A stretch of DNA of 64,000 nucleotides from contig JBBTTO010000002.1 of the NCBI GenBank assembly GCA_038064195.1, positions 269,356 to 333,355 of the forward strand. The letters run 5' to 3'. Under the pieces are notes generated by a model. It saw nothing but the letters and a program-made list of their open reading frames with translations, was not told where the DNA came from and made no database searches. This document shows positions 7,667 through 39,627 of this stretch, piece by piece. The stretch is from Patescibacteria group bacterium (GTDB lineage: Bacteria > Patescibacteriota > Microgenomatia > Levybacterales > UBA12049). Made by a program: the position numbers and the translations under genes. Each line of letters starts with the position of its first letter. Position 1 is the stretch's first letter.

Positions 7667-7677
7667 AGAGAACAATT

Positions 7678-8151: not shown

Positions 8152-8177
8152 TAGGCGTACAATAACGCTTATCATCC

Positions 8178-9274: not shown

Positions 9275-9325
9275 CATGAGTAATACTTAATAGCTAACGA
9301 AGATCAACTATTATATAATACGCAT

Positions 9326-19873: not shown

Positions 19874-19902
19874 TTGACAAAAAATAGCACTCTTGCTATC
19901 AT
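19874..19902 (+). promoter_or_regulatory. sigma70-like promoter of hrcA operon (TTGACA-17-TATCAT)
   Basis: TTGACA at 19874-19879, a 17-nt spacer, TATCAT at 19897-19902. It overlaps the CIRCE-like element. Confidence 0.5.
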
Positions 19903-19910
19903 ACTGCTAA
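19884..19910 (+). promoter_or_regulatory. CIRCE-like HrcA operator (imperfect)
   Basis: aTAGCACTC-N9-tACTGCTAA, compared with the consensus TTAGCACTC-N9-GAGTGCTAA. The left half matches 8/9 and the right half is imperfect. It lies immediately upstream of hrcA. Confidence 0.55.
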
Positions 19911-19927
19911 CTCTTTTCGGAGACGAT

Positions 19928-20662: not shown

Positions 20663-20698
20663 GCATAGTTTAGAATTAAGAATTCAGAGTTAAGAATT

Positions 20699-21199: not shown

Positions 21200-21305
21200 A
21201 TTCGAAATAAGAATTTCGAAGCTCGAAACAAATTTAAAATAATTAAATACAAAATAGTTTCGGATTTCGATATTAGATTTTCGAGTTTCTTTTGAAAAAA
21301 GTATT

Positions 21306-23195: not shown

Positions 23196-23553
23196 TCTTG
23201 ATCAAAGCGAATATGATCGTAAGTTTGACGAATTAGATAAAACTGGCCAATTTGCTGCTGAGCAAATCAGAGCAAAATTAGGTGATCGTCCGAAGTCAAC
23301 TCCATTTGCTGTTGAGCCGACCTCAGAGGATACCCCCACTCCTATTATTGAAAAGCCTGCGATAGATCCTTTCAAAGATTATACGAGCGAGCAATTAGCT
23401 GCGGCTCATGAGGCTCTTGCAAGTGGGGAGATAGATAATTTTAATGGCCTCAATCAAGCTGATATTGCGCGTGAGGTCGATAGGCGGTATGAGAAAGAGC
23501 TTAAATCCAGCAGTACTCAAGCACAAGCTGACAGGGATGACGTTGTCCGCTAG
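23182..23553 (+). CDS. Hypothetical acidic protein inserted between dnaK and dnaJ
   Basis: 123 aa. The ATG overlaps the dnaK stop by 14 nt (possible coupling). No recognisable domain. Confidence 0.4.
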
Positions 23554-23575
23554 GTTAATTAGAAGTGATTTTAGT

Positions 23576-23600
23576 ACCTCGAGCTACTCGAGGTTTTTTT
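23576..23600 (+). terminator. Rho-independent terminator-like hairpin
   Basis: acCTCGAGctaCTCGAGGt followed by a T7 run. Confidence 0.55.
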
Positions 23601-23657
23601 AGCAACCAGCCTTCGCCTACACGTATCTAAATGGTATAATGATGAACTAAACTAATT

Positions 23658-24545
23658 ATGGCAGCTACAAATCAAGATTATTATTCCCTCTTAGGTATCA
23701 CCAAGTCAGCAACTGCGGATGAGATAAAAAAGGCGTATCGCAAGTTAGCACTTCAATATCATCCTGACCGTAACAAGACCACGGAAGGCGAGACAAAATT
23801 CAAAGAAATTACCAAGGCCTACGAAGTTCTCTCAGATCCGCAGAAGAAGCAGACATACGATCAGTTCGGTGCGGCTGCTTTTGAGCAAGGTGGAGCAGGG
23901 GCGGGTGGACCTTTCGGAGGACAAGGGAATCCTTTTGGTGGTTTTGGTGGCGGACAGTATACATATACAACCAATGGTCAGGGGTTTGACTTCGGAGGTT
24001 TTTCTGATCCTTTTGAGATCTTTGAGCAGTTTTTTGGAGGGGCATCGCCTTTCGGGCAGAGGGCAAGGCGTCCCGTCTACTCTTTAAGCCTGACATTTAT
24101 GGAAGCAGTAAAAGGAACTGAAAAAGAAATAACAATTGATAACAAAAAACAAAAAATAAAAATTCCCGCAGGTGTGGATAGCGGGACGAGGATGCGTTTT
24201 GATACGTATGATGTTCTCTTCGATGTTGCAACAGATAAGAATTTCCAGCGTGAAGGATCAGATGTCATCACGAGTGAGGAGATATCTTTCCCGCAAGCTG
24301 CTTTAGGCATGCAACTTGAGGTAAAGACTGTCGAAGGTCAGGTAACTGTCAAAATCCCCCCCGGTACCCAACCTGATACACTGATTCGTCTGCGGGGAAA
24401 GGGAATACAGAGATTGCGCAGTAGCAGTAAGGGTGATCACTATGTGCGTATTAGGGTCACGATTCCTAAGACGTTAAGCAAACGTCAGAAGGAACTTCTC
24501 ACAGAATTCGATCAGGATACCTCACAGAAAAAAAACTGGTTTTAG
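23658..24545 (+). CDS. dnaJ: J-domain co-chaperone (DnaJ/CbpA type II, no Zn-finger)
   Basis: J domain ([13 protein letters not shown]), a G/F-rich region and C-terminal CTD I/II. No CxxCxGxG repeats. Confidence 0.8.
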
Positions 24546-24607: not shown

Positions 24608-24624
24608 GCACCGCTTAGCGGTGT
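24608..24624 (+). terminator. Short GC hairpin downstream of dnaJ / in leader of pilin-like gene
   Basis: gCACCGCttaGCGGTGt with a 6-bp stem, then tatttgtgtt. It lies 10 nt before the ATG at 24634. Confidence 0.35.
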
Positions 24625-24633: not shown

Positions 24634-25047
24634 ATGAAAAATGTGCCTGCCCGCATATCCGGTTTTCGGAAAATAATCCAAGCAACTCTTCTTCTCGGGT
24701 TTGTGATTTTGTCTGTAGCTTCTCCCTATCAAGTTCAAGCTGACGCTCCTTCACCTTGTCCGCCGGATCAGGCCATAACAGAGGTTGGCTGTCTACCTAA
24801 AGACCCGATTCAATTCGTAAGCAGTTTTTATACAATCGGGCTGGGGCTTATCGGTGGTGTAGCGTTAATTTTTATAATCATCGGCGGCTATACGATTTTG
24901 ACCTCTCGTGGGAGCCCGACTCAAATTAATATCGGCAGAAGCTATATATTTTATGCAATTTTAGGTCTCCTCCTGGCAATTTTCGGTTATATCTTTATTG
25001 AGGTCTTTGCTATAGACATCTTGCATTTACCAGGCTTTAGTAATTAG
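24634..25047 (+). CDS. VirB2/TrbC-like two-helix pilin-type membrane protein (candidate)
   Basis: 137 aa. It has a long signal peptide ending ..VQA, then a Cys pair (CPPDQAITEVGC) and two hydrophobic helices separated by a short polar loop, which is the classical T4SS pilin architecture. The stop lies 2 nt before the next ATG. Confidence 0.45.
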   Translation: MKNVPARISGFRKIIQATLLLGFVILSVASPYQVQADAPSPCPPDQAITEVGCLPKDPIQFVSSFYTIGLGLIGGVALIFIIIGGYTILTSRGSPTQINIGRSYIFYAILGLLLAIFGYIFIEVFAIDILHLPGFSN

Positions 25048-25048
25048 T

Positions 25049-28000
25049 ATGAAAAAATTTATAGCTGGTTTAGTCTTCCTGGCAATTGTATGTTTGGCAG
25101 CGAGTTCTTCACCTATTGTTTTTGCGGCTGATCCAATTACTACAGGAGTAACCGGATTAGGCGTGGGAGCTGCCGCGACACTACCGGCCGACGGGTCGTG
25201 GATTACAGACCCTGAGGTAACTAAGGTTGGTAAGAACGCCGCCCGGGCAGGTATGTTACTCGATTGGACATTGCGGGACTATCAATGGTCTTTTGTTAAA
25301 AATGGAGATACCAATCCCTTAATTCCTTTTTGGTTGACGATGCAGCGAATTGTCTATGCACTCTTCCTTTTTGTCGTGCTGGTCACAGCTTTTATTTTAA
25401 TTGTCACAAGAGGCAGGAGCCTGTCAGCCAGACGTTTTCTTCCCCGCTTTTTCATGGTCGTTCTTCTGGTCACGTTTTCATTTTCGCTGGTTCAATTTCT
25501 CTATCAGATTATTGATATCTTCCAAGGGTTCTTCCTTAAAAATCCTCAGGGGAATATTATCTCCTCACGTGATCTTCTCTATGTCGGATTTGACTATCAA
25601 TCTTTTCAGGGGTTACGCGTATTCGGGCAGTCTTTTGATGAGTCAGCTTTAATCTCACTCCTTCTGGTCAAACTTACGTCATTTACGTACTACGTCATGG
25701 TCATACTGCTTATTTTCAGAAAAATCATTTTGTGGTTTTTTATCATTATTTCACCCGTTTTCCCGCTGCTGCTTCTTTTTTATCCTCTGCGTAATACTGC
25801 CAAAATTTGGGTGGGGGAATTCTTCCGTTGGCTGCTCTACGCTCCGCTTTTTGCAATTTTCCTGTCAGGACTTGTTAAGTTGTGGCAGACCAGCCTGCCT
25901 CTTCTTTTTAACTTTAGTAAGGTAAGTGATCCGAGTACTGTTGTTTATCCGACCGCTGTTAACATCCTGCTGGGTGGTCCGCAGCAGCATATTTCTCAGG
26001 TAAATTCGGTTAATCTCCCCGACACATTCGCGTTGTATGTAGTGGCACTCATTATGCTCTGGACAGTAATTATTTTGCCTTTTATTCTGCTGCAAATCTT
26101 TCTTGACTACTTTATGTCTGTAAATTATCGGGATAATCCACTCCTCAAACAAGTCTATACACTCATGAATAACAGGCCGCTTATTCCTCCGCCTCTTCCT
26201 CCGGGATCTCCCGCACCTGCCGGACAGGCCGGACTTGCGAGAACCTTACCGCTTGTAAGAAGGTTTGAAGGGCCTAGGACAACAGGTCTTATGCAGTCCA
26301 TTCCGACGAGTACAAGTATCTCACAGCAGCAACAAATTACTCGTCCGGTGACAACAACGATCAGTAACCAGACGCAAGTATCCCGTTTGACAAATCTATC
26401 TATCCCGACCATGCGGGATATTGCACGCTTTGAGAAAGAAAAATTAAGCAACCGATTGGCATCCCAACAGGAAATAGAGCGTGTTAAATCGACGTTACTC
26501 CAGATTGCTAATCCCCTGAGGACTTCGACTTCAAAAGAGCGTGAGCGATATCAAAGTGTGCGTGAGCGTCTTGTGATTGAGGGGCAAAAAGGCAATCAGA
26601 CAGCCACCAACATACTCAATGCGGCAACTACTTATAATACCTATCATTCAGTCTTTAAGCCAAGTCAGAGCAGTCAGTCAAGTCAACAGTTCATTCAAAA
26701 CCTGGCAAATCCCGAGAAAATCGTTGACAAGACAGAAAAAGAGAAGATTGTCCACATTCGTGAGCAGATACAGTCTGCAGCAACTACCGGCAATGAGCTG
26801 GCAAAAGTAGTACTCAATGCCATTACTCAGACCACGACGACCAGAGTTACAAGCCTGCAGGAGACTCTCAAGGAGCTTTCCCATCCTGAGAAAGTCGTTG
26901 ATGAAAAGCAAAGAGAACAATACACTTCACTTCGCGAGAAAATCAGTCAGGCCAGCACAGCAGGTAACCCGCTCGCACAGCTGGTAGTATCCTCACTTGA
27001 GAAATCAACCTCACCCGTTGAGGTAAAAATGATTCAAACAAAACTCCTTGAAGCACAGGCAGAGGGCAACCCCTTAGCAACAGAGATTCTGACAACAGTA
27101 ACGAGTAAAGAATCAACAAGTCAGGAGCAACTTAAAGAAGTTCAGACCAAATTAGAAGAAGCAAATAGAAAAGGAGATCCGTTAGCAGCTGTTTTGCTAC
27201 CTCTTCTCACCTCACAGAGCGTAAAGCAACAAGAAGCTCCTGTCTCGGCGGCTGCCAAACTCAAGACGGGTGCGTTCCCGGTCGTGAATCGTGTTCAGCA
27301 GGTCTCACTTGACGATTATGAAGCAGTAAAAAAGATGTGGAAAGAGAATTATCAGAATCTGGAAGTCCCCCAAGACATAACTGGACAAAAAACCCGTAAA
27401 CAATGGATCACCTCAGATATTGCAGATATAGAGCAGACAATCAGCCTGCTAACCTCATCAAATCCAACTGAGGTTGAAGAAGGCATGAAACAGGTCTCAG
27501 ATATTTTGCCCTTTCTGTTGATCGGAGGCTTTTCGCAAACCGAGATTATTGCTTATCTTAAAGCGAAGATGGAGGCGGGTAAGCAAGTTGCCGAAAGTAT
27601 CGGTTCCAGAGAGGAGGAAGAAGAGACTCTCCTCAATGCCGCACATGCTGCTAAAGCTGCCACATCACATATGACAACCAGTATGCAAGTAGACGAAGAA
27701 AGTTCGTCAAGCAGCTCAGTGTCTGAATCACCTACGATTACTAATAACTTTACGACTAATAATCATTATGCAACAACAGTTATACAGCCGGTGAGTTCCT
27801 CGACCGGTACGTCTCTTCTCCACTTAGCTCAGCTTCCGCTTATTACTATGCGGGATATTGTCCAATTTGAGACAACTCAGGGTTCGGCCAAAGAAACGAC
27901 TGAAGTAAAAAAGATTCAGGCGACACTCTCCGGGATATCAAATCCCGAGCAGCTGGCTTCAAAGGAGGAACGGGATCGTTTTGTCAAACTGCGACAAGAG

Positions 28001-29872
28001 ATCGTAGCGGAGAATCGCAAAGGTAATCCACTTGCCGAGATGATCCTGGCTGCATCACTCATGAGTGTCTCGGGTAAGAAGCCTAGTACACAACTGCTGC
28101 CCAAGGGTCGGGTCCCTGTTTTGCCTAAGCAGAACAGGCTTCAACAAGTCTCCCTTGAGGATTATGAAGTGGTCAAGAAAATGTGGGAAGACAATTACAG
28201 TTTACAATCTTCCCAAGCGGGCAAGACAAAGGAAGAATGGCTGAAGGATGATCTCAGATCGATAAGTGAGACTATTAATCTGCTTTCTTCAGAGAATGAG
28301 CAGGATATCTCCCTGGGGATGGAGAAAGTCGGTGAGATACTGCCTTTCCTGTTACTCGGAGGTTTTTCCAAGCAAGAGATTGTAGGCTATCTTAAAGCTA
28401 AAATGGAGGCCGGTAAAACAGTTTTGTCCCGTGTCGAGTCAGCAACTGAAGATAATGATCTCCAACAGGTTGTGACAGGCAAACAGGTTAAGACGGTCAA
28501 TGCTGAGGCAGTCGAGCTACCTACGCCTGAATCTGAGGACGCTACTTTTGAGACAAAAGATCTTTCTCAAGACAGGGGGAGTCTGCCTGCGCAAGTGAGA
28601 CTGCCGCTTCCTTCTCTTAAAGATATAGCCGTCCTTGAAACCCACCAAGCCTCAGGATCTCAATCACTGAATGAGTTACTCCAGACACTTAGCAATATCG
28701 TTTCTCCCGAGCGGATCAAAGATAAAGAGGAGAAGGAGAGGACTACTTTATTGCGGGAGTCTCTGGTCAAGCAAGCAAATAGTGGTGATGTGATTGCACA
28801 AACTATATTAAATGCAGCACGAGGGACGGGAAGCAGTGTCAAGCAGTCATCACGAGACGATGTCAGTCAATTTTTGCTTACTCTTCGTAGCGTTTTTGAT
28901 CCATCGCTGGTTGAAAATGTGACTACCCGTCAGGACTATACCACAACGCGGGATATGCTGGCCAAAGCAAGGCAAGCAGGTTCAGACATTGCAGTTACTC
29001 TTATGCGCCTGGTCGATACTGTTTCACATGAAGAAAATGAAGCAATTATGAATATGCTTCATTTGGTAGGCAATCCCGCACAAATCGTTGACGAGAAAGA
29101 AAGAGCAAGGTACACAGAATTTCGGGGAACACTTGAAAAAGAAGCATCCCGTAGTACATTGGCTGCGATGATACTGCAAGCGACAACAGGTGATATCTCA
29201 CCTGTGAGCGCGAATAAAATACGCGTCCAGCTTCTTGAAGCAAGTATGAAACAGGAGCCTCTTGCTACGAGTATTACTAATAATTTTATTACTCTCCCCC
29301 AGTCAACCATACTTGAAGCAAGAAGTACGTATAAAGAGGTGACTAAAAAAGGAAGCAAAGATCCGCTCGTCACAGCTCTTATCCGACTTCTCAATAAACA
29401 ACCGGTAAGTAGCAAAAATAGACGCACGCTTCAATTCCCCCAACAAAACAGAACACAAAAAACGTCAGTTGATGATTATGAAGCTATAAAAAAGCTGTGG
29501 TATGAAATGTACGTTCATGGTCAGGTACCAAAAGATAGTAGTGGGGAAGAACAGACACGGGAGGAGTGGGTCGCACTGGACAAGAAAGACGTTGAGGAAG
29601 TGATTAATTTATTGTCTTCTGATAACCTTGGTAACCAACAACTAGGCATGGAGCGGGTCGGGGACATCCTGCCTTTCCTTTTGATCGGAGGCTTTTCTCA
29701 AGCTGAGGTTATTGATTACTTGAAAGCCAAAAGGGAAGCAGCGGTGATCGCTCTCCAGACATTGACTGCCAGTCAACCCGAACTGGTTGATAGGCCTTCT
29801 GAAAAAAAAGGACCGGTATTGCAAAGCGCTCAGATACAACAATCTGATACGGTCTCAGACAAAGATGAATAA
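25049..29872 (+). CDS. Giant VirB6/TrbL-like polytopic membrane protein with 1250-aa nested-repeat C-terminal domain
   Basis: 1607 aa. A signal peptide is followed by 5-6 TM helices in the first ~350 aa. A hydrophilic region follows with three super-repeats, each containing ~40-aa NPExIVDxxE[KR]E..LRE..G[ND]PLA..IL modules and a ~95-aa [ST]V[SD]L[DE]DYE..KKMW...ILPFLLIGGFS..YLKAK domain. Confidence 0.5.
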   Translation: MKKFIAGLVFLAIVCLAASSSPIVFAADPITTGVTGLGVGAAATLPADGSWITDPEVTKVGKNAARAGMLLDWTLRDYQWSFVKNGDTNPLIPFWLTMQRIVYALFLFVVLVTAFILIVTRGRSLSARRFLPRFFMVVLLVTFSFSLVQFLYQIIDIFQGFFLKNPQGNIISSRDLLYVGFDYQSFQGLRVFGQSFDESALISLLLVKLTSFTYYVMVILLIFRKIILWFFIIISPVFPLLLLFYPLRNTAKIWVGEFFRWLLYAPLFAIFLSGLVKLWQTSLPLLFNFSKVSDPSTVVYPTAVNILLGGPQQHISQVNSVNLPDTFALYVVALIMLWTVIILPFILLQIFLDYFMSVNYRDNPLLKQVYTLMNNRPLIPPPLPPGSPAPAGQAGLARTLPLVRRFEGPRTTGLMQSIPTSTSISQQQQITRPVTTTISNQTQVSRLTNLSIPTMRDIARFEKEKLSNRLASQQEIERVKSTLLQIANPLRTSTSKERERYQSVRERLVIEGQKGNQTATNILNAATTYNTYHSVFKPSQSSQSSQQFIQNLANPEKIVDKTEKEKIVHIREQIQSAATTGNELAKVVLNAITQTTTTRVTSLQETLKELSHPEKVVDEKQREQYTSLREKISQASTAGNPLAQLVVSSLEKSTSPVEVKMIQTKLLEAQAEGNPLATEILTTVTSKESTSQEQLKEVQTKLEEANRKGDPLAAVLLPLLTSQSVKQQEAPVSAAAKLKTGAFPVVNRVQQVSLDDYEAVKKMWKENYQNLEVPQDITGQKTRKQWITSDIADIEQTISLLTSSNPTEVEEGMKQVSDILPFLLIGGFSQTEIIAYLKAKMEAGKQVAESIGSREEEEETLLNAAHAAKAATSHMTTSMQVDEESSSSSSVSESPTITNNFTTNNHYATTVIQPVSSSTGTSLLHLAQLPLITMRDIVQFETTQGSAKETTEVKKIQATLSGISNPEQLASKEERDRFVKLRQEIVAENRKGNPLAEMILAASLMSVSGKKPSTQLLPKGRVPVLPKQNRLQQVSLEDYEVVKKMWEDNYSLQSSQAGKTKEEWLKDDLRSISETINLLSSENEQDISLGMEKVGEILPFLLLGGFSKQEIVGYLKAKMEAGKTVLSRVESATEDNDLQQVVTGKQVKTVNAEAVELPTPESEDATFETKDLSQDRGSLPAQVRLPLPSLKDIAVLETHQASGSQSLNELLQTLSNIVSPERIKDKEEKERTTLLRESLVKQANSGDVIAQTILNAARGTGSSVKQSSRDDVSQFLLTLRSVFDPSLVENVTTRQDYTTTRDMLAKARQAGSDIAVTLMRLVDTVSHEENEAIMNMLHLVGNPAQIVDEKERARYTEFRGTLEKEASRSTLAAMILQATTGDISPVSANKIRVQLLEASMKQEPLATSITNNFITLPQSTILEARSTYKEVTKKGSKDPLVTALIRLLNKQPVSSKNRRTLQFPQQNRTQKTSVDDYEAIKKLWYEMYVHGQVPKDSSGEEQTREEWVALDKKDVEEVINLLSSDNLGNQQLGMERVGDILPFLLIGGFSQAEVIDYLKAKREAAVIALQTLTASQPELVDRPSEKKGPVLQSAQIQQSDTVSDKDE
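26390..29760 (+). repeat. In-frame coding super-repeats (3 units of ~1.2, 0.6 and 1.16 kb) within giant protein gene
   Basis: Repeated ~95-aa domains lie at ~27300-27590, 28148-28425 and 29465-29745. Nucleotide blocks are conserved (e.g. gattatgaagc/tggt..aaaatgtgg; ctgcctttcctgtt..tcggaggcttttc). The ~40-aa helical modules recur 8 or more times. Confidence 0.7.
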
Positions 29873-29947
29873 AGACTTGCTCTTTTTTGGGAATTTGTAT
29901 TAAATAAAAGTGTACCCATATCGGGTGGGGGATTTTATCTATAAAAT

Positions 29948-32734
29948 ATGTTAGGAAATTTATTCAGCTCCCATAAAGACGAGAGGTCAATGCCGACTGA
30001 TCAAGCTCAACCTATGAACGATGATTCAACAGCAACTAATTCTCCGTTCCCACAGGATACAAATACCTCCTCACGAATGGATCCTGTCTTTCGTCAAAAT
30101 ATGTCTGCTCTCTCGCATTTAGACGCGAGGACTACGCAAGTGCTTCATCATGCTCAGGATGAGACAAAAAAGATCAGACAGGCACAAATCGAACCGGAGC
30201 AGCTACTCCTCGGGCTCCTCTACGACGAGGAGGTATTTAAGCTCTTTGAAGGATTTAATGTGGATGTCGCAAAGCTTGCTAAGGAGATTCAGAGTAAAGA
30301 ACAACTCGGTAACAGCACGACGCAGCCAACACTCAGCAACGCGACAACTGAGATCTTTGAGGCAGCATATAGAGATTGTAGAAATAGAAATGTCAGCTTC
30401 ATTTCACCTGAGGATCTTGTCGTCGCTCTCTTTGGTAGTGGCGGAAGGCTCGCGCAAAATCTATCTGAGAAAGGTATTAAGAAAGAGGCAATTAGTGAAA
30501 AACTCTCCAAGTCTGCGACTTATACAACCGGTAAGAAATCTATCCTTCAGGAATACGGCATTGATCTCACTGAGGAAGCCAAAGCAGGTAAACTGGATCC
30601 GATTGCCGGCAGGGACAAAGAAATTGATCGACTTGTTCACATACTTCTCCGTCGAACAAAAAACAATCCGATTATCATCGGTGAGGCAGGAGTAGGTAAG
30701 ACAGCAATTGTTGAAGGACTTGCTGAAGCAATTGCATCAGGGAGTGTTCCCGGGGGTCTCAATGACAAAAAGATTTTTCAGCTCGATCTAGCAGCTCTTG
30801 TCGCGGGCGCAAGTCATCGGGGGGAATTTGAAGAACGCCTTAAGGGTGTTATTAATGAAACAATAGCCTCACAAGGTCAGATCATACTTTTTATCGATGA
30901 GATCCATACATTGATCGGTGCAGGAGACACCGACGGGACGCTTGATGCTTCCAATATTATAAAGCCTCACTTAGCAAGGGGGCATATGCAAATCATCGGT
31001 ACTACAACAACTGCTGAATATCGTAAGCATTTTGAGAAGGATAAAGCCTTTGAGCGGCGTTTTCAGCCAATCTTAGCTGATGAGCCGAGTGAAGAGGCAG
31101 CAGTCGAGATGCTTAAAGTGCTTCGTCCTAAGTATGAAAAATTCCACAGTGTCACCATCCCTGATGATACATTGGTAGCTGCGGTTAAGTTATCAAAGAA
31201 ATATATCGGTGAGCGCTACCTTCCCGACAAAGCTGTGGATCTTATTGATGAAGCTGCAGCTGATGTGAAATTAGGCAGGACTGTAGTTAAAGAACAAAAA
31301 TCAGAGAATAATGATCAAAAAAAAGATAGCAATCTGGACGGTAACGGAATATCTGACTCACAGCAATCATCTTCACGTGCTACCGGTAATGAGGTTGTGA
31401 AATCAGATATAGAGAAAGTGGTCAGCAACTGGACAGGGATTCCCATCACCAAATTGACTGAGGATGAAAGTCAAAAACTCTTAAAACTTGAGGATAAGAT
31501 CCATGAGCGGCTTATTGATCAGGAAGAAGCTGTGACTGCTGTTGCTGAGGCAGTGAGGCGGGGAAGAATCGGCTTGGCTCCTGCCAACAGACCGATTGCT
31601 TCATTTGTTTTCTTAGGGCCGACAGGGGTAGGTAAAACTGAGTTGGCAAAATCTTTAGCTGAGTTACTTTTCGGTCGTGATGATGCTCTTATCAGACTTG
31701 ATATGAGTGAGTATATGGAAAAACATGAAGTAGCTAAGCTCATCGGTGCACCTCCCGGGTATGTAGGATATGAGGAAGGTGGTCAGTTGACTGAGGCAGT
31801 TCGGGCTAAGCCTTACTCAATTGTCCTCCTTGATGAAGTCGAGAAAGCGCATCCTGATGTCTTTAATATCTTACTTCAGCTCCTTGAGGACGGTCGTCTG
31901 ACTGACAATAAAGGCAATACGATTTCTTTTAAAAATACGATTGTTATTTGTACATCAAATATCGGTAGTGCTTTAATCCAACAACAATTAAGCGAGAAGG
32001 ATACAGGAGCAGCAACTACGCAGGAAGCTTTCAATGAGCAATTTGCTGAGCTTGCAGGCATGGTGACGACTGAACTGCGAAAATTCTTCCGACCTGAACT
32101 TCTTAATCGCTTTGATGATGTGGTCATATTTAAGCCGCTTCGCAAAGCTGATATGAGTAAAATTGCTAAGTTAGGGATTGCCAAGACAGCCAAACTTTTG
32201 GAAGAACAGGGGTATCATGTCCAGACGACAGACGGAGCGCTCGCAGAGTTGGCAAAAGAGGGGTACGATCCTGTCTATGGCGCGAGACCTCTTCGCCGCC
32301 TCATCCAGACAGCAATCGAAAACCAAATTGCCATGCTCTTAATTGCCAAACAATTTGTCCCTGGGGACACTATCGTTATTGATTATGACGCTGCAAAAGG
32401 GGCTTTTGCTTTCAGTAAGGGGAGCGGACAAAGTTTGGAAGGGACCGCGTCAAACGCGGCTGGCGCAAAGGGGACAAATGGGAGTGAAGCGGAAGCTGTT
32501 TCAGACGGGATGAATTCAAGCGACGATGCTACCCCTCAGTCTCCCGTTGCCGGAGCTGGGGAAGCGATGGCGCTTCCTGAGGAGACAAATGAGACACAAG
32601 GATCAAATGGGGCTCAACAGTTTGCCACACCTGATTTCAGTCCACCCTTTATGAAAACTGATGATACACAAACGAACGGTAATATGAATGCAGCCTCAAA
32701 CGGTATGGCCTCATCCTCAACTGCGACAAATTAG
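29948..32734 (+). CDS. ClpC/ClpA-like double-AAA+ Clp ATPase (both modules intact) with low-complexity C-terminal tail
   Basis: Clp_N repeats; D1 Walker A GEAGVGKT and Walker B FIDEIH; D2 GPTGVGKT / LLDEVEKAH; a short middle region with no long ClpB M-domain. The C-terminal ~110 aa are Ser/Ala/Gly/Asn-rich. The start codon is uncertain (several in-frame ATGs). Confidence 0.8.
32444..32482 (+). repeat. 39-nt element shared with dnaK 3' end (copy 2, inside clpC-like tail)
   Basis: ACCGCGTCAAACGCGGCTGGCGCAAAGGGGACAAATGGG, 35/39 identical to the dnaK copy and in the same reading frame. It encodes [13 protein letters not shown]. Confidence 0.7.
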
Positions 32735-32938
32735 TCTTAAGCCTCTTATTTGAGTTTTGCCTCGTGAGTGCCTATACTAAAAGTATCTTTATTTTGACTT
32801 GCTTATCAGGGGTTTCACCCCTACTATTAGCTTGTTTGTAGGGTGAAACCCCTCGAGACTGAGGTTTCTGACCTCACCCCCTGCCTTGGCAGGTCCCCTC
32901 TCCTTTAAGGAGAGGGTTATAAGGAATTTGATTATTTT
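32735..32938 (+). other. Highly structured intergenic region with four or more consecutive hairpins
   Basis: AGGGGTTTCACCCCTAC..(12)..GTAGGGTGAAACCCCT (16-bp stem), GAGGTttctgACCTC, CCTGCCttGGCAGG and CCTCTCCtttaaGGAGAGG, between the clpC-like gene and the small membrane ORF. Confidence 0.45.
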
Positions 32939-33271
32939 ATGACTGCCTACCTTTTCTTGCCTATCTATTTTTTGGAGTTTTGGTTTGGTCAGGCTCCTTT
33001 ACGTCTTATCAGCCACTTTATAAAGATAAATCAGGCTTTTTTCCAGTTTTTCTCGGTGCCTTTACTTTTACGGACATTTTTCAGGCCAGCAAAGAACGAA
33101 TACAGAAAAGGTTTAATCGGTTTTTCAATCGGGATCGGCATTTTTTTGAAAAGTTGTGTTATTCTTACGGCTTTACTCCTATTTATCCCATTACTCCTGA
33201 GTGAAGTTATCCTGTTTTGTGGATTTTTGACCTTTCCGCTTATTACGTTAGCAGTCTTGCTTTGGAATTAA
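32939..33271 (+). CDS. Hypothetical small polytopic membrane protein
   Basis: 110 aa with 3-4 TM helices. The stop is 2 nt before the ATG of the membrane-anchored Clp paralog. Confidence 0.4.
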   Translation: MTAYLFLPIYFLEFWFGQAPLRLISHFIKINQAFFQFFSVPLLLRTFFRPAKNEYRKGLIGFSIGIGIFLKSCVILTALLLFIPLLLSEVILFCGFLTFPLITLAVLLWN

Positions 33272-33273
33272 CT

Positions 33274-35685
33274 ATGGATTATCATCTTTTAGCTTTTTAC
33301 AGTTTTTATAGGGCTTCGGGAGTTCGTCTTCTTCGCGCATTTGTTGCGAGTGGACTTTGCCTACTCATCGTCATTGGTATACTCGGGAGATTTTCTCCTT
33401 CATTTCCGCTTTTTCTTCTCAATATTCAAATCATGGTGGAAATTTTCTATCGCTACTATGTCTCAACCAGACAATCGACAAAGACAATTCAGGAAGTAGA
33501 TGAGTCAAATGTACTTCACGCAGTAACACTTCCTGCTATGGCAACACTCAGACAGAGTCGAACAAGTGCCGAGACGTTAAAGCGGCTTTTAACTTTTCCT
33601 CAGGTTGAATTTTTTCTCGCCCGATCAGGTATTAGCAGAAATGAATTGCCAATAAGTGAGATGGGAAATGCAGTTCTCCCGCAATTTGCTTACAAATTAG
33701 CTAAGGAATTGGGCGGTAAATATGTGACCACTATGGATCTTATGGCTGCCTATATATTACTTGAGGAAGAGAGAGCCCATTTACTTGTGAAGAAGAATCT
33801 GCAGGAAAAGGACATTTTGCAGATATTACGTTGGGCAAGATCAGCATATCCCGAGGAAGAACGACCCCGGTCTTTTGAAATAACAGTTGGCGGTGGAGGA
33901 ATTGGAGAATGGTTGGCAGTAGGTTGGACACCCGAGACGGCAGAATTTACTCGCAATTTTACCTATGAGATAACAAGTGATGATGTATCAATTGTCGGTC
34001 GTGAGGAAGAATATGAAAGACTGAAAGAAGAATTATTAAAGCTGGAGAATAATAACGTTGTTCTTATCGGAGAAGCAGGGGTCGGGAAAGAACAGCTGGT
34101 AAGAAAGCTGGCAATTGATTGTTATAAAAATGCTCTTGATCATGCTTTAGGTTATAAAACAATACTGGAGCTATTGGTCGGATCACTACTTGCAGGAGCG
34201 ACCTCTCAGGGAGAGCTTGAAGAACGGGTTAAGGCAATTATTGATGAGATATCTCATGCCGGTAATATTATCCTTTATATTCCCGAGTTCCAGGATATGA
34301 TCGGCGGTAGTAGCTTCTCACTTGATCTTTCAGGGGCACTTGCTCCCTATATGAAAGACGGTCAACTTCCGGTTATTGCCACCATGACTGAGGGGAACTA
34401 TAAAACCTATTTTGAGAAGAGTTCACTTCACGAACTCTTCTCACCCATTACTCTTAATGAGCCCACCCCTCAGCAGGCGGAAATAATGGTGATGGAAAAA
34501 ATAAGTGAGATTGAGAAAAACCAAAATTCGATTGTAACCTATGCTGCCCTTAAGATAGCTACTGAGTATGCCGGAAGATATACTCAAAACCTGTCACTTC
34601 CCGGGAGCGCGATTGAACTATTAGCTGATGCTATAAGTTCCTTACATGATACTAAAGACGCCGGTTTTTATGATAAAACACAAAAGCGTTTGCTGACAGA
34701 TACACTCGTCCTCAAAACAATTGAAGGAAGGACAAAGATAGCCTTATCTGAGCCCTCAGACAGCGAAAAAACATTATTACTGCATTTAGAAGATAGGCTC
34801 CATCAATCAATTATCGGACAGGATGAAGCCATCACTGTCATAGCTGAGGCTATGCGACGTCTCCGTTCAGGGGTTGAATCTGTGAACAGGCCAATTTCGT
34901 TTCTTTTTTTGGGACCGACAGGAGTCGGTAAGACAGAGACTGCCAAAACACTTTCCAAAGTCTACTTTGGCGGTGAGCAAAATATGATCAGACTCGACAT
35001 GAGTGAATATGCTGAACTAGATGGTCAAAAGCGTCTTTTGGGTGCACTTCCCGGGCAGGGGGAAGAACGAGGTGAGTTGACAGAAAAAGTTCGTGATCAT
35101 CCTTATTCATTGATATTGCTTGATGAATTTGAGAAAGCTCATCCTTCTATTTTGAGCTTGTTTCTTCAAATCCTTGATGACGGGCGAATCACCGATAACA
35201 AAGGCCGTACTATCTCATTTATAAATACAATTATTATCGCTACCTCCAATGCAGGATCTGAATATATTCGTGAGGCAGTAGAGAATGGCAAAGCAAGTAC
35301 CCCTACTTTTACCAAAGAGCTGTTAACGTACTTGCAGGAGCAAAATATTTTCAAACCGGAGTTACTCAACCGTTTTGACGGAGTCGTCACATTCCATCCT
35401 TTGACAGAACCTGAGATTGAAAAAGTGACCGCGATACTTCTTCGGGATCTGGCAGAAAAGATGCAGGAGAAGAATATTTCTCTTACCTATGCAAACAGTG
35501 TTTTCAAAAAAATTGCTCATGAGGCATATAATAAAGAGTTCGGTGCCCGTCCGATCAGGAGATACTTACAGGGGACGATAGAAGAACTTCTCGCGCAAGG
35601 TCTACTACAGAACAGTATTCACCATGGTGATCAAGTAACAGTTGACGTTGATAATAACAATAACTTTGTAATTGAGGGGAAATAA
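33274..35685 (+). CDS. Membrane-anchored Clp-family double-AAA+ ATPase with degenerate first AAA module
   Basis: Two N-terminal TM helices and a Clp_N-like domain. D1 Walker A is GEAGVGKE (Thr replaced by Glu) and Walker B is ILYIPEFQ (DE replaced by PE). D2 is intact ([12 protein letters not shown]; LLDEFEKAH; sensor region). The start was set at the ATG after the upstream ORF's stop. Confidence 0.7.
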   Translation: MDYHLLAFYSFYRASGVRLLRAFVASGLCLLIVIGILGRFSPSFPLFLLNIQIMVEIFYRYYVSTRQSTKTIQEVDESNVLHAVTLPAMATLRQSRTSAETLKRLLTFPQVEFFLARSGISRNELPISEMGNAVLPQFAYKLAKELGGKYVTTMDLMAAYILLEEERAHLLVKKNLQEKDILQILRWARSAYPEEERPRSFEITVGGGGIGEWLAVGWTPETAEFTRNFTYEITSDDVSIVGREEEYERLKEELLKLENNNVVLIGEAGVGKEQLVRKLAIDCYKNALDHALGYKTILELLVGSLLAGATSQGELEERVKAIIDEISHAGNIILYIPEFQDMIGGSSFSLDLSGALAPYMKDGQLPVIATMTEGNYKTYFEKSSLHELFSPITLNEPTPQQAEIMVMEKISEIEKNQNSIVTYAALKIATEYAGRYTQNLSLPGSAIELLADAISSLHDTKDAGFYDKTQKRLLTDTLVLKTIEGRTKIALSEPSDSEKTLLLHLEDRLHQSIIGQDEAITVIAEAMRRLRSGVESVNRPISFLFLGPTGVGKTETAKTLSKVYFGGEQNMIRLDMSEYAELDGQKRLLGALPGQGEERGELTEKVRDHPYSLILLDEFEKAHPSILSLFLQILDDGRITDNKGRTISFINTIIIATSNAGSEYIREAVENGKASTPTFTKELLTYLQEQNIFKPELLNRFDGVVTFHPLTEPEIEKVTAILLRDLAEKMQEKNISLTYANSVFKKIAHEAYNKEFGARPIRRYLQGTIEELLAQGLLQNSIHHGDQVTVDVDNNNNFVIEGK

Positions 35686-35735
35686 GGATTTCTTGACAAC
35701 ACGCCTAAATACTTTTAACCTATAACAAGCTAGCA

Positions 35736-36854
35736 ATGAAGAAAAAAAAATCCCAGAGAAAGCACATTAGCCATCGGGCAAAAAAACGATCTCCGCGTCG
35801 ACTCCATCACCGGGTAATATCCTTTTTTAGAGGAGATGGAGGAATATATGTGATCCTCCTTTTAGGAGTCACAATGGCCGGGGCGTTCGCACTTTCAGGT
35901 GGTATCCTGCCCCAACTCAACCCTAATCCATCAAGCGCAGATCAAGTGCAGATCGATGAAGACTCGGCCAAACGAAGCTCAGAAAGCGCATTACAACTGG
36001 TAGATATTAAAATAAAACCGACTGATACTCCTGTCCCCACCCCGACTGAAAATCCTACATCTTCGATTACGCCACTGCTTACCTCCTCAATCACTCCATC
36101 GCCATCAACAATTAAGGAATGTCTTGACAGGAGTGTTATTACTATGATGATTGATCTTTCGGCTTCAATGGGGAATGATCATAAAATTGATGCATTGAAT
36201 ACTGCGCTTGTAGACTTTACAGGCTCTCTTCAATCAACGAATGCTGTCGTAGGAGGTATTGCATTTGGCGCGCCATCCGCAGAATATACCCTGGATAATA
36301 TAGAAGGGGTAAAATTGCTGTCAAACTATACAAGTAATAAAACTAACGTTACCAGTAGGTTTACTAACCTCAAAGTAGGCCCTACAGGTGGTACCTACAT
36401 GCGTAACGGATATAAGGATTCAGTCAGTCGCCTTACGAGCTATAAATCAAACCATCAAACACAAAATAATCACTATATCTCAATTATTTTTTCTGATGGG
36501 GTACCTGAGATACTTGATGATCTTAATCCGACGTGTCTTGGCGGGGGAAAAGTTGATGGAGTTTGTTGGGCACGTCAACAGGATCCCCGTAAGACACCTT
36601 TCGGACTTAATTCAACTGATTATATTACTTTGATGGACGGGCTGGTTAATAAATCCTATGCAGTAGCAATTTATGACAGTAGGTCAGCAGCAAGAGGTGC
36701 GGGTTTGACTGATGAGTTAACAACGCTCCTCCACACTGCTGCGTCAAGTTCAAAAGCACCTTATTATCAAAGTGTTGATCTTAAAAACGGTCCGCTTGAT
36801 CAAGGAGAATTGAAAGGCTTCTTTAATTCCATTGTTAAAGATGCTTGCTCGTAA
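35736..36854 (+). CDS. Membrane-anchored von Willebrand factor type A (vWA) domain protein
   Basis: Basic N-terminus, a single TM, a Pro/Thr-rich linker, then a MIDAS motif (MIDLSASMG ... T ... IIFSDGVPE). Confidence 0.65.
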   Translation: MKKKKSQRKHISHRAKKRSPRRLHHRVISFFRGDGGIYVILLLGVTMAGAFALSGGILPQLNPNPSSADQVQIDEDSAKRSSESALQLVDIKIKPTDTPVPTPTENPTSSITPLLTSSITPSPSTIKECLDRSVITMMIDLSASMGNDHKIDALNTALVDFTGSLQSTNAVVGGIAFGAPSAEYTLDNIEGVKLLSNYTSNKTNVTSRFTNLKVGPTGGTYMRNGYKDSVSRLTSYKSNHQTQNNHYISIIFSDGVPEILDDLNPTCLGGGKVDGVCWARQQDPRKTPFGLNSTDYITLMDGLVNKSYAVAIYDSRSAARGAGLTDELTTLLHTAASSSKAPYYQSVDLKNGPLDQGELKGFFNSIVKDACS

Positions 36855-36912: not shown

Positions 36913-38136
36913 ATGCCAGCAGTACAACGCTCAGAATTTGCTCTTGCCCTCAATCAGGTCGCTACCGAACGCGGAGTGGATGTCGATGTCGTTTTGGACA
37001 CAGTCAAAAATGCAATCGTAGCTGCCTATCGTAAGGATCACCCGGGGGTTGAGGTAGAAGAATATACCGCCGATCTTAATCCCAATACCGGTGAGGCACG
37101 CATTCTCCATGAGGGGGAAGATGTTACCCCTCCTGGCTTTGGCCGTATTGCCGCTCAAACTGCCAAGCAAGTCATCCTCCAGAAAATTCGTGAGAAAGAA
37201 AAAGAAGCAATTATTACCGATTACCGTGACAAGATAGGACAGATTGTTAACGGGACTGTCTTACGTTTTGCAGGGTCAAATGTGATTGTTGATATCGGAA
37301 AGACCGAGGCAATGATGCCACCCCCTGAGCAAATTCAAAATGAAAAATATTATCAAAATCAACGTTTAGTCGTCTTCCTTAAAGATATTCGTGAAGGAAT
37401 TAAAGGCGAGGAAGTTATTGTATCAAGATCAGATAACGGACTTCTTGAAGGGCTTTTCCGTCGCGAGGTTCCTGAGGTAGCACAGGGAAGTGTTGTTATT
37501 AAGACAATTGTTCGTGAGCCGGGTAATCGCGCGAAAGTAGCTGTCTCATCAACCCAAAGCGGTATAGATCCGGTCGGTAGTTGTGTAGGCCAAAAAGGTG
37601 TCCGTGTCCAGGCAATTATTCAGGAAGTCGGCGGTATTGAGAAAATTGATATTATCCAGTGGCAGGATGATATAACAGCCTATATCGCAGCAGCCCTCTC
37701 ACCTGCCAAAAACGTTAATGTTCATCTTAATCAAGATGATAAAAGCGCAAAGGTTACTGTCCCTCAAGATGAATTATCTTTGGCAATCGGCAAAGACGGA
37801 CAGAATGTACGTTTGGCTTCGAAATTGACAGAGTACCGTATTGAAATTGAAGGTGACCAATTAGAGCCTAAACCAGTAGTAGCGGAAGAAAAGATCGAAG
37901 AGGCTAAAGAGACAAAAGAGCCGGAAGAGAAAGTCGAAAAGATTGAAGACGTTGTTGAAGAGGTTGAATCTAAAGAAGAAGCTGTTAAAGACAGTAAAGG
38001 TGAAGCCCCGACTGAAGCACAGCTTGCGGAAGAGACAAAAGAGATAGTAGACGCAACTGAGGGAGCGCAGGTGGCTATTACCCCTGAGGATGAGGCTCCA
38101 GATAAAGCTACTATCAAGACCGATACAACTGAGTAA
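36913..38136 (+). CDS. nusA: Transcription termination/antitermination factor NusA
   Basis: NusA N-terminal domain, S1 and KH1/KH2 (..GSCVGQKGVRVQAI..) and an acidic C-terminal tail. Confidence 0.9.
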   Translation: MPAVQRSEFALALNQVATERGVDVDVVLDTVKNAIVAAYRKDHPGVEVEEYTADLNPNTGEARILHEGEDVTPPGFGRIAAQTAKQVILQKIREKEKEAIITDYRDKIGQIVNGTVLRFAGSNVIVDIGKTEAMMPPPEQIQNEKYYQNQRLVVFLKDIREGIKGEEVIVSRSDNGLLEGLFRREVPEVAQGSVVIKTIVREPGNRAKVAVSSTQSGIDPVGSCVGQKGVRVQAIIQEVGGIEKIDIIQWQDDITAYIAAALSPAKNVNVHLNQDDKSAKVTVPQDELSLAIGKDGQNVRLASKLTEYRIEIEGDQLEPKPVVAEEKIEEAKETKEPEEKVEKIEDVVEEVESKEEAVKDSKGEAPTEAQLAEETKEIVDATEGAQVAITPEDEAPDKATIKTDTTE

Positions 38137-38175
38137 TCATATGCACTCACCGTTGTTTTTATCAAGAAAAATCAT

Positions 38176-39627
38176 ATGTCAAACGAAAATAAATCACAGC
38201 AGATTATCTATCCTCCTGTCGTAGCCGTTCTCGGTCACGTTGACCACGGTAAAACTTCACTTTTAGATGCAATTCGCAGTACATCTATTGCAGAGCGTGA
38301 GTCAGGTGGTATCACGCAAAAAATAGGTGCTTCCTCAGTTGAGATCATGCATGACGATAAGCCTCGAACTATTACCTTTATTGATACTCCCGGACATCAG
38401 GCCTTCTCACAAATGCGAAGTAGGGGCGCGATCGCTTCCGATATTGGCCTGCTTATTGTTTCATCAACTGACGGGGTGATGCCTCAAACTCGGGAAAGTA
38501 TTGAAGCCCTTAAAGCGTCCAAAATCCCCATCATCGTTGTCCTCACCAAAGCTGATTTGCCGACCAAAAATATCGAGAAAGCAAAAGGCCAGATCTTACG
38601 GGAAGGCATTATGCTTGAGGGGATGGGGGGTGACGTCCCTGTCATGGAAGTATCCGCAAAGACTAAAAGCAACGTCAAAGAATTGTTAGATCTTATTTTG
38701 TTAGTCCAGGAATTGCACGCCAGTAATACGACTGAAAAAGTTTCTTCCACTCACCCAATGAAAGCTATTGTGATTGAATCGCGCCTTGATCAAAAAGCCG
38801 GACCGAGAGCGACACTTATCATCAAGGACGGCACATTAAAAGTGCGTGAACCGGTCTTTATCGATGGGAGTTCATTTAAAGTTCGCTCAGTGATGGACAC
38901 CGAGGGTAAGATGCTCTCCGTTGCGACAATCGGTCAGGCTGTTGAAGTTTTAGGTTTTTTGAAAGTACCCTCTGTCGGCAGTCTAATGACGAGCGAGCCT
39001 ACTGTTCAAGAAGCTGAGTTACCACTCTCCAAAGAAAGTGTTTATTCGCCGGTTGCAAATCAAGAAGAATTGCCAATCATTCTTGCCGCTGACTCACAAG
39101 GGTCACTTGAGGCAATAACTAATGCATTCCCTGAAAAAGTTCATGTTTTGGAGCAAAAAACGGGTGAAATAACAGAAGGAGATGTCCTGCACGCCAAATC
39201 AACAGGCTCGCTTCTTATCGGTTTTAATACCAAGCTTCGACCTGATGTTGTGAAGCTGGCACGAACAGAGAAAGTGCTGATGAAGAATTATACGATTATC
39301 TATGAGCTTTTAGACGAAATAGCAGATGTTTTGGAGGGTAAAAGACTGGCGGGAATCGAGGAAATTTACGGAACAGCTAAGATATTGGCACAATTCCCCT
39401 TTGAGAAGACAGTGGTCCTCGGAGTATCAGTAACTGATGGCCGGGTAGCCAGAGGAGACAAAATACGCGTGATGCGTGGTGATAACGTCATTGGCGAGTC
39501 ACAAATTACCTCACTGAGAGTAGGAAAAGAGCCCACATCAAAAGTAGAAAAAGGCCATGAAGCCGGCATTGTGATCTCACCCATGCTTGACTTTGAGGTC
39601 GGAGATATGCTACTATCCCATGAATAA
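38176..39627 (+). CDS. infB: Translation initiation factor IF-2 (core-only, no N-terminal domain)
   Basis: G domain (AVLGHVDHGKTSLLD, DTPGH, TKAD) followed by domains II, C1 and C2. Only 483 aa. Confidence 0.85.
   Translation: MSNENKSQQIIYPPVVAVLGHVDHGKTSLLDAIRSTSIAERESGGITQKIGASSVEIMHDDKPRTITFIDTPGHQAFSQMRSRGAIASDIGLLIVSSTDGVMPQTRESIEALKASKIPIIVVLTKADLPTKNIEKAKGQILREGIMLEGMGGDVPVMEVSAKTKSNVKELLDLILLVQELHASNTTEKVSSTHPMKAIVIESRLDQKAGPRATLIIKDGTLKVREPVFIDGSSFKVRSVMDTEGKMLSVATIGQAVEVLGFLKVPSVGSLMTSEPTVQEAELPLSKESVYSPVANQEELPIILAADSQGSLEAITNAFPEKVHVLEQKTGEITEGDVLHAKSTGSLLIGFNTKLRPDVVKLARTEKVLMKNYTIIYELLDEIADVLEGKRLAGIEEIYGTAKILAQFPFEKTVVLGVSVTDGRVARGDKIRVMRGDNVIGESQITSLRVGKEPTSKVEKGHEAGIVISPMLDFEVGDMLLSHE

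Follow-up and report, generated by a model that had tools for sequence, protein, structure and literature searches.

A type IV secretion pilin and an extended VirB6-like protein encoded beside two atypical Hsp100 ATPases in a chaperone gene cluster of Patescibacteria

Does the chaperone gene cluster of an ultra-small Patescibacteria group bacterium encode part of an envelope machine, and if so, which one? The question is raised by six genes lying between the hrcA-dnaK-dnaJ operon and nusA-infB in a 64,000-nucleotide stretch of contig JBBTTO010000002.1 (Microgenomatia; Levybacterales), the whole of which is hereafter called the window. An earlier note, made from the letters alone, had proposed that these genes form an undescribed, self-contained apparatus combining a VirB2-like pilin and a giant VirB6-like protein with two Clp-family unfoldases and a von Willebrand factor A (vWA) protein. 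All six co-oriented open reading frames (ORFs) were recovered from the ORF list and translations, and the flanking genes are hrcA-grpE-dnaK-orf123-dnaJ upstream and nusA-infB downstream. As argued below, the best explanation of the locus is that it encodes the pilin and extended VirB6 platform of a Patescibacteria-type (monoderm, MPF-FATA-like) type IV secretion system (T4SS), situated away from virB4 and lying, with two lineage-specific Hsp100 ATPases, inside a dnaK-dnaJ cluster under HrcA/CIRCE control. The pilin-VirB6 half belongs to the already described T4SS parts of Patescibacteria, and what is new is its association with Hsp100 genes. The features of the cluster are as follows, where TM stands for transmembrane and the names Clp1 and TM-Clp denote the two Hsp100 proteins.

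24634..25047, + strand: VirB2-like T4SS pilin, 137 aa (PF18895, hydropathy, orthologue alignment)
25049..26188, + strand: N-terminal VirB6/TrbL-like polytopic domain (PF04610, AlphaFold2, Foldseek)
26309..29788, + strand: hydrophilic tail with three super-repeats, aa 421-860, 888-1140, and 1160-1580 (internal similarity, alignment)
29948..32734, + strand: Clp1, a soluble double-ring Hsp100 of 928 aa (Pfam, NCBIfam, ClpC alignment)
32939..33271, + strand: conserved membrane protein of about 109 aa (window ORF 110 aa) with two C-terminal TM helices
33274..35685, + strand: TM-Clp, an Hsp100 paralogue of 803 aa with an N-terminal two-helix membrane hairpin (hydropathy)
35736..36854, + strand: signal-anchored protein of 372 aa with a vWA domain and metal ion-dependent adhesion site (MIDAS) (translation motif, VWA_2, hydropathy)

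The first gene encodes a protein with a signal-peptide-like N terminus and, according to hydropathy, two TM helices (approximately residues 65 to 83 and 109 to 127) separated by a basic loop. This layout, which is kept in the orthologue alignment, is the hairpin expected of the T4SS pilin family, with both termini predicted to be outside and a short loop in the cytoplasm. The loop is conserved (SxGNPxxLNxGKSYI), and two invariant cysteines precede the first helix. Against the T4SS_pilin family (PF18895), the window protein scores 20 bits (E=7e-4; Pfam cut-off, 26.6). The family is matched by 21 of the 22 orthologues from related loci (E<=0.01; best 2.5e-8), one of which also matches TrbC/VirB2, and a profile of the pilin returned nothing but G protein-coupled receptor noise from the PDB sequences. 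The profile matches bear out a pilin call that had been made on architecture, and we accept membership of the predicted pilin in T4SS_pilin at the level of the orthologue group. Its stop lies 1 nt before the start of the next gene, making the two a translationally coupled pair.

That next gene is an ORF of 1607 aa (25049-29872, + strand), and its product begins with a signal peptide, an extracellular helix, and five long hydrophobic helices. The N-terminal 380 aa score 19.8 to 22.8 bits against PF04610 (E=9e-5 to 7e-4; cut-off, 25.9), and 14 of 33 homologues match the TrbL/VirB6 profile at E<=0.01 (best 1e-6). Precomputed PF04610 or PF19590 matches are also found on some database homologues, and a profile made from the domain alignment gave no matches among PDB sequences. 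An AlphaFold2 model of residues 1-380, built on the homologue alignment, reached a predicted local distance difference test (pLDDT) score of 83. In a Foldseek comparison with this model, chains of TrwI/VirB6 from the R388 stalk complex took ranks 1 to 6, 8, and 9, and DotA took rank 7, with statistics that are modest (probability up to 0.97, E 0.027, TM-score 0.3 to 0.41, identity 13 to 14%). Given the profile matches in the homologues and R388 TrwI/VirB6 as the top PDB folds, the VirB6 call of the earlier note stands, and we accept the VirB6/TrbL assignment, predicted from sequence and model, for the orthologue group. A second VirB6-like paralogue, of 1126 aa, was seen between alaS and lepA in two other loci, L053 (9932-16687) and L054. 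It is followed there by two subtilases, one with an SdrD_B domain, which echoes the secreted-protease genes of the main cluster; no T4SS context, pilin, or Clp genes were found around this giant paralogue in L053 or L054.

The remainder of the protein, described in the earlier note as a repeat-rich extension of about 1,250 aa, proved to be a triplicated helical-repeat unit specific to this family, with internal similarity down to E=1e-34. Each super-repeat is built from helical repeats of about 60 aa (NPxx[IV]xDxxERxxY...GNxLAxxIL), then a module of about 110 aa (VSLDDYExVKKxW...ILPFLLIGGFSxxEVIAYLKAK), and then an acidic stretch. The module is modeled by AlphaFold2 as a helical bundle (pLDDT, 84). 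It had no fold match in the PDB (best E 1.2), only E>0.2 in a profile comparison with PDB sequences, and no Pfam family. An exhaustive profile search of 1.84 billion proteins found it in 348 representative clusters, usually once and at the C terminus of proteins of 720-1000 aa, with up to five copies in others. Because the module is nearly always single-copy elsewhere, the window protein is a triplicated version.

The repeats of this tail also occur on the neighboring ATPase. In three related loci (L004, L006, and L007), Clp1 is 1250-1430 aa long, owing to a C-terminal extension made of VirB6-tail-type helical repeats (blastp E down to 4e-30) whose motif can be recognized by eye. Since Clp1 has neither a signal peptide nor a TM segment, the repeat would work in the cytoplasm, which argues for a cytoplasmic VirB6 tail as well. 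The C terminus of Agrobacterium tumefaciens VirB6 has likewise been reported to be cytoplasmic.

Is Clp1 simply a housekeeping Hsp100? It has a Clp_N domain and can be aligned end to end with ClpC, its best PDB matches being ClpC and ClpB (E down to 1e-208). Walker A and B are intact in both the first (D1) and the second (D2) AAA+ ring, and the D2 pore loop reads GYVGY. In the D1 pore, SHRG replaces KYRG, leaving no D1 tyrosine, and SHRG is found in 62 of 68 orthologues. The position of the middle (M) domain is taken in the window protein by a low-complexity linker of about 45 aa, and the ClpP-binding [LIV]-G-[FL] loop is absent from it when aligned with Staphylococcus aureus ClpC and is present in 0 of 59 orthologues. 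Every NCBIfam equivalog cut-off is missed: the scores are 907 for TIGR03346 (ClpB; cut-off 1232, matched in two pieces), 709 for TIGR02639 (ClpA; 993), and 694 for TIGR03345 (ClpV/TssH; 885). The missing M domain and the low TIGR03346 score speak against a ClpB disaggregase, and the missing docking loop and low TIGR02639 score speak against a ClpA/ClpC partner of ClpP. A type VI secretion system (T6SS) ClpV is disfavored by its TIGR03345 score, and neither the window nor the related loci showed T6SS genes. The label "complete ClpC-like" given previously thus holds for the two nucleotide sites and fails for the M domain, the ClpP loop, and the D1 KYRG. The term "unfoldase" appears to fit Clp1, judging from its motifs.

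The second Hsp100 departs further from the canonical type. TM-Clp most likely starts at ATG 33274 and not at TTG 33217, and the resulting 803-aa product is identical to a database protein. This ATG lies 2 nt past the stop of the small membrane gene (33271), so that the small gene and TM-Clp are also translationally coupled. The small protein (motif FLKFWYxEAP...KNEYRxGLVGFS) belongs to no Pfam or NCBIfam family, and in 50 loci an orthologue of it immediately precedes TM-Clp. In TM-Clp, D1 is degenerate at both nucleotide motifs, with GEAGVGKE (GxGKE) as Walker A and IPE (P[DE]F in homologues) as Walker B; this had been noticed before in the window sequence and is conserved across 120 homologues. 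The aromatic pore residue is gone from both rings (D1 KYRG to TSQG, D2 GYVGY to GQGEE), and the D2 loop reads PG[EQ]G[ED]ERGE across the 120 homologues, 119 of which have intact D2 Walker A and B. The membrane hairpin and the loss of the D1 pore tyrosine are likewise conserved in the 120 homologues. On this alignment, the degeneracy is a conserved specialization and not decay. Because neither ring has an aromatic pore loop, TM-Clp is unlikely to thread substrates, and of the "two Clp-family unfoldases" claimed earlier, Clp1 qualifies and TM-Clp is doubtful. With motifs and scores of this kind, the two Clps are atypical, which answers the concern, raised in the same note, that they might be just the housekeeping clpC/clpB pair. 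We found no published description of a membrane-anchored Hsp100 with a dead D1 and no aromatic pore loops.

How far this gene order is conserved was determined in a scan seeded with the VirB6 domain and restricted to one genome per species, which gave 157 relatives, with neighborhood counts taken from the 80 best. Record titles of the 157 were mostly Levybacteria/Microgenomates or unclassified Patescibacteria. Many contigs of loci L008-L087 that look like candidate phyla radiation (CPR) DNA are titled "uncultured Gammaproteobacteria bacterium", and others Limnocylindrales, Sulfotelmatobacter, or Rhabdochlamydiaceae; these titles are evidently wrong or default and unfit for taxonomy. The order does recur in relatives: pilin-VirB6-Clp1-(secreted protein)-small-TM-Clp was found in approximately 60 species-level genomes, mostly Levybacteria/Microgenomatia. 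VirB6 is immediately preceded by the pilin gene in 75 of 78 loci and immediately followed by Clp1 in 59 of 63, and the pilin-VirB6 pair has dnaK upstream in 62 of 68. In 43 of 56 loci, the fetched flank includes the small gene or TM-Clp, the flank limit cutting off most others. When TM-Clp was used as the seed (L001, L002, L004, L006, L007, L088, and L089; 45-59% identity), all seven loci had pilin-VirB6-Clp1 upstream and nusA-infB downstream. Two arrangements were observed, the usual dnaK-dnaJ-pilin-VirB6-Clp1-small-TM-Clp and an alternative dnaK-pilin-VirB6-Clp1-dnaJ-small-TM-Clp, in which the block stays intact with dnaJ on its other side (11 full and 8 partial loci). In L088, the cluster sits behind its own 550-bp upstream region, with no dnaK or dnaJ upstream.

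Gene order alone is no proof of a machine, since unrelated neighbors are syntenic as well. As a control, the divergently transcribed and unrelated metG lies beside hrcA in 36 of 46 loci, and the order nusA-infB-rpsO-pnp-lon-rnj is also kept. The adjacency of 94-96% within the cluster is only moderately above the 78% background of metG. This leaves room for an explanation by neighborhood without partnership, in which the pilin and VirB6 work only with a VirB4 encoded elsewhere, the Clps serve general proteostasis, and slow rearrangement keeps the order. Candidate terminators and promoters between the units (see below) agree with it, as does the presence of VirB4 in about 80% of Patescibacteria genomes, and clpB stands beside dnaK operons in some other bacteria. 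It fits less well with the adjacency above the metG control, with the survival of the pilin-VirB6-Clp1 block through the dnaJ rearrangement and in L088, and with the VirB6-tail repeats carried by Clp1 in three loci, and a membrane-anchored TM-Clp lacking aromatic pore loops seems ill-suited to general proteostasis. We consider this explanation, the main rival of the one favored here, somewhat unlikely.

The sixth gene has a different status. Its MIDAS signature (DxSxS...SDG, here DLSAS...SDG) was read from the translation, Pfam VWA_2 matches below its cut-off (E=4e-4), and hydropathy predicts a very basic N terminus followed by a single TM helix and a Pro/Thr linker. These elements place the vWA domain outside the cell. 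Orthologues are confined to the closest relatives, namely L001-3 and L009-12, apart from weak matches in L016 and L031. In other lineages, the positions in or beside the cluster are taken by proteins with vWA plus SdrD_B, an SdrD_B protein, a beta-helix protein, a subtilase, or an M4 peptidase. In many lineages, the cluster contains, or is immediately followed by, a single gene for a secreted or anchored protein of variable type, and the vWA protein of the window is an occupant of this slot and not a core member. The membrane-anchored vWA/MIDAS protein of the earlier note is accordingly confirmed in signature and anchor, and its role as a member of the system is not, the gene not being conserved. 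The proposed partnership between it and the Clp proteins is unlikely given an extracellular domain and a gene limited to the closest relatives. A pairing of the MoxR-vWA type was rejected because the ATPases are of the Clp/Hsp100 class, the vWA domain lies outside the cell, and the gene is not conserved in the cluster. A gene of about 600 aa between Clp1 and dnaJ or the small gene in Levybacteria was considered as a detached VirB6 tail and likewise rejected, as it encodes a secreted subtilase or SdrD_B protein without tail similarity. Two slot proteins, L018 14736-16598 and L047 14966-16759, have a common C-terminal region despite differing N-terminal domains, consisting of an SdrD_B Ig-like domain, a Pro/Thr linker, and a Cys-rich end (C..DP.C......SIQIC.LKC) that could be an anchoring or recognition tag. 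In L088, an M4 peptidase (7525-9606) fills the slot between Clp1 and the small gene.

Would such a locus work without VirB4? No VirB4, VirD4, or VirB11 was found in the 35 of the 45 larger window ORFs (>=90 aa) that were Pfam-scanned, which include all those between 11.8 and 49.9 kb, the other ten lying near the ends (0.1-11.8 and 50-52 kb). Nor were these domains found in the called genes of L001-L007, L088, and L089. VirB4 was detected in 2,417 of 3,035 Patescibacteria assemblies (~80%), usually near dnaA (PMC12102498), and because most of these genomes carry it elsewhere, its absence from a 64-kb window says little. The earlier statement that all three ATPases are missing is thus correct for the scanned ORFs and does not hold as a sign of VirB4 independence. 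A self-contained, VirB4-independent envelope machine, with the Hsp100s replacing VirB4/VirB11 and the vWA protein as adhesin, would accord with this local absence, with the free-standing cluster of L088, which has an upstream region of its own, and with the recurrence of secreted or surface proteins in it; canonical pilin extraction, moreover, needs cytoplasmic ATPases (PMC9259494). Against it are the near universality of VirB4 in the phylum, usually elsewhere near dnaA, a vWA gene that is not conserved in the cluster, a TM-Clp without threading pore loops, and the lack of any known precedent for Hsp100-driven pilus assembly, and we regard it as decidedly unlikely.

The pilin-VirB6 half does have described counterparts, contrary to what had been supposed, since a pilin and an extended VirB6 are known from Patescibacteria T4SS (PMC10633639, PMC12102498, PMC12857230). 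The parts described in the phylum are VirB4, TrsD, PrgI, VirB6, and VirB2-like pilins (PMC12102498), and the "extended VirB6" is a recognized class (PMC12857230). A 2025 survey found VirB6 to be "scarce" in the T4SS loci of Microgenomatia and mentions neither Clp nor dnaK. This scarcity fits if VirB6 is encoded in the present cluster instead, and the VirB6-like gene of the window is a good candidate for the one missing in Microgenomatia. In the literature on Patescibacteria/CPR T4SS, Clp, and DnaK, we found no published description of Hsp100 genes tied to T4SS parts of Patescibacteria.

Among the closest known counterparts is SEML1_0006-0019 of Southlakia epibionticum (Quinonero-Coronel et al. 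2025), where PF18895 pilins lie beside an extended VirB6/TrbL with a helical, ARM-like tail, in a bacterium that is likewise monoderm and without a relaxase. In Southlakia, the pilins and the 1088-aa VirB6 with its helical tail are essential by transposon sequencing and stand beside virB4 (PMC10633639). Its genes, which include six pilin paralogues, are grouped with virB4, prgI, and trsD near the replication origin, whereas in the present locus a single pilin and VirB6 are the only T4SS genes and share a dnaK-dnaJ cluster with two Hsp100 genes. Southlakia lacks both this cluster and TM-Clp and has one canonical, non-essential ClpC. A polytopic VirB6 domain with a large hydrophilic extension is also found in the VirB6 paralogues of Rickettsiales, TraG of the F plasmid, and TcpH of Clostridium (PMC12857230). 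Unlike theirs, the extension in the window consists of a family-specific repeat and module, does not match them, and has its repeat in common with a neighboring Hsp100. The TrwI/VirB6-VirB2 structures of R388 (PDB 7O3V and 8RT9) are comparable in their long hydrophobic helices and in the proposed role of VirB6 in pilin recruitment and as the assembly base. The R388 protein differs, however, in being about 340 aa long and tail-less, in having VirB3, VirB4, VirB5, VirB8, and VirB11 as partners, and in belonging to a diderm envelope.

On the Hsp100 side, the Clp_N domain, the two AAA+ rings, and the D2-small domain are those of ClpB, ClpC, and ClpA, from which TM-Clp is set apart by its membrane hairpin, dead D1, and acidic, non-aromatic pore loops. 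Hsp100 proteins act at membrane transport sites in the Plasmodium translocon of exported proteins (PTEX; HSP101-EXP2), in the translocon at the inner chloroplast envelope (TIC; Hsp93/ClpC and Ycf2-FtsHi), and in T6SS (ClpV). FtsHi complexes bring together active and catalytically degenerate membrane-anchored paralogues. Unlike the present cluster, PTEX, TIC, and T6SS ClpV have no T4SS parts, and HSP101 and ClpV retain canonical pore loops.

The chaperone genes and the intergenic sequences bear on how the cluster may be expressed. GC content is approximately 44% across the window, and a short DnaJ, a short IF-2, and PsbP_2 are typical of Patescibacteria/CPR. The features around and between the genes of the cluster are the following.

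19874..19910, + strand: best sigma-70-like promoter, TTGACA-17-TATCAT (11/12 promoter match) with an overlapping CIRCE-like inverted repeat (controlling inverted repeat of chaperone expression, the HrcA operator)
19874..24545, + strand: hrcA, grpE, dnaK, a 123-aa ORF, and a short dnaJ (Pfam HrcA, GrpE, HSP70, DnaJ, DnaJ_C)
24608..24624, + strand: GC-rich hairpin in the dnaJ/pilin gap, poor T-run; weak terminator or attenuator candidate
32750-32778, + strand: weak promoter-like site before the small membrane gene (promoter scan)
32790..32930, + strand: intergenic region after Clp1 with three GC-rich hairpins, read from the sequence; candidate terminator or processing site
36913..39627, + strand: nusA-infB housekeeping operon, downstream bound of the cluster (Pfam)

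The CIRCE-like site at the head of hrcA-grpE-dnaK has 3 mismatches (0.03 expected by chance) and is the sole one in the window, and none was found in L088, whose cluster lies apart from dnaK. As CIRCE is confined to the hrcA promoter and is lacking in L088, there is no support for HrcA acting directly on the pilin or Clp genes. Between Clp1 and the small gene are 204 nt that contain the consecutive hairpins GGGGTTTCACCCC...GGGTGAAACCCC; CCTGCCTTGGCAGG; and CCCTCTCC-TTTAA-GGAGAGGG, without a T-run; this region had no Rfam match, and the hairpins may serve in termination or processing or form a repeat element. Promoter-like sites precede the small gene, the vWA gene, and nusA (promoter scan and sequence reading). 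Neither tRNA genes nor Rfam families at the gathering threshold were found in the whole 64 kb. Pfam detected no zinc-finger domain in the window dnaJ. The 123-aa ORF (23182-23553), which has no Pfam family, overlaps the end of dnaK by 14 nt and has dnaJ downstream; in L002, a 145-aa gene is found at this position. The ORF may be an uncharacterized member of the chaperone operon.

A cluster embedded in an HrcA/CIRCE operon could also suggest envelope stress or membrane-protein quality control, in which the VirB6- and pilin-like proteins would have been exapted as a platform or sensor for DnaK, DnaJ, and Hsp100, without any role in secretion or pilus formation. A membrane-anchored AAA+ protein with a small membrane partner would suit this function, and other T4SS genes are not nearby. 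Nevertheless, the pilin retains the Cys pair, two-helix hairpin, and loop of its family, it remains translationally coupled to VirB6, as is the case in T4SS loci, the cluster contains genes for secreted proteases and adhesins, and TM-Clp lacks the pore loops expected of an extractase. We find this alternative very improbable.

We therefore return to the T4SS platform and to whether it is functionally tied to a dedicated Hsp100 pair in the chaperone cluster, a proposition to which we would give an even chance. In such a mechanism, a VirB6-like oligomer would recruit the membrane-embedded two-helix pilin, in the way proposed for VirB6 and VirB2 of R388, and its long helical-repeat tail would lie in the cytoplasm as a docking scaffold. 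Clp1, with its intact D2 pore loop, would be a ClpP-independent threading motor working at the VirB6 platform, where it may extract or remodel the pilin or unfold secretion substrates. TM-Clp, together with its 109-aa partner, would bind ATP but not thread substrates, and would serve as a membrane anchor or a regulatory ring by which Clp1 is held or gated at the membrane. Clients would be supplied or received by DnaK and DnaJ, and the variable secreted proteins of the cluster, here the vWA protein, would be candidate surface cargo or adhesins. VirB4 and the other T4SS parts would be expected elsewhere in the genome. In a stronger form of the proposal, the Hsp100 pair, and not or not only VirB4, would be the motor of a T4-like pilus or secretion module of Microgenomatia under HrcA heat-shock control. 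We think this unlikely and hold in the same doubt its particular architecture, in which a soluble, ClpP-independent threading ring would be docked through the VirB6-tail scaffold to a membrane-anchored, catalytically asymmetric, non-threading ring. If true, this would be the first case in bacteria of a secretion or pilus apparatus run by a Clp/Hsp100 protein at a VirB6 platform, comparable to HSP101-EXP2 of Plasmodium.

Several points weigh against a platform tied to Hsp100 proteins. The pilin and VirB6 domain of the window are themselves below the Pfam gathering cut-offs, and the fold match is modest (E 0.027). The tail may not be cytoplasmic: the extension of F-plasmid TraG is periplasmic, and the R388 structure has only two VirB6 helices inserted in the membrane. 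The repeats common to adjacent genes could stem from local recombination, and Clp1 could be the general disaggregase of this lineage, placed beside dnaK. High background synteny (metG-hrcA; nusA-infB-pnp) makes the conserved order weak proof of function, and the hairpins after dnaJ and Clp1, together with the internal promoter-like sites, suggest several transcription units.

Some further observations concern genes downstream of the cluster. A 365-aa ORF without a Pfam match (39639-40736) directly follows infB, at the position where rbfA/truB would normally be expected in a nusA-infB operon. Genes of 342-375 aa fill this position in L001, L002, L006, L007, and L088, the likeness being one of size and position alone. 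At 44870-45985, a 371-aa protein combines an AAA domain and Lon lid without a Lon protease domain and is thus a stand-alone Lon-like ATPase; its place after pnp and before RNase J is kept in L001 (20201-21322) and L002 (20176-21303). Lastly, a protein of about 790 aa with a weak Baseplate_J/GlxA beta-barrel match (55349-57748) adjoins alaS and is also present in L053 (5425-7761).

In the sole Patescibacterium tested, the T4SS was shown to be essential for the bacterium's own survival, the first T4SS for which this was found. The locus described here places a candidate for the missing VirB6, together with a pilin, in a heat-shock cluster, where gene order and a repeat family link them to two hitherto uncharacterized Hsp100 variants. 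If the functional coupling is true, it would show how minimal cells energize or quality-control their host-contact machinery and would add membrane-bound AAA+ regulators of a new class. Should it prove false, the annotation of T4SS would still be refined in a major uncultured lineage.

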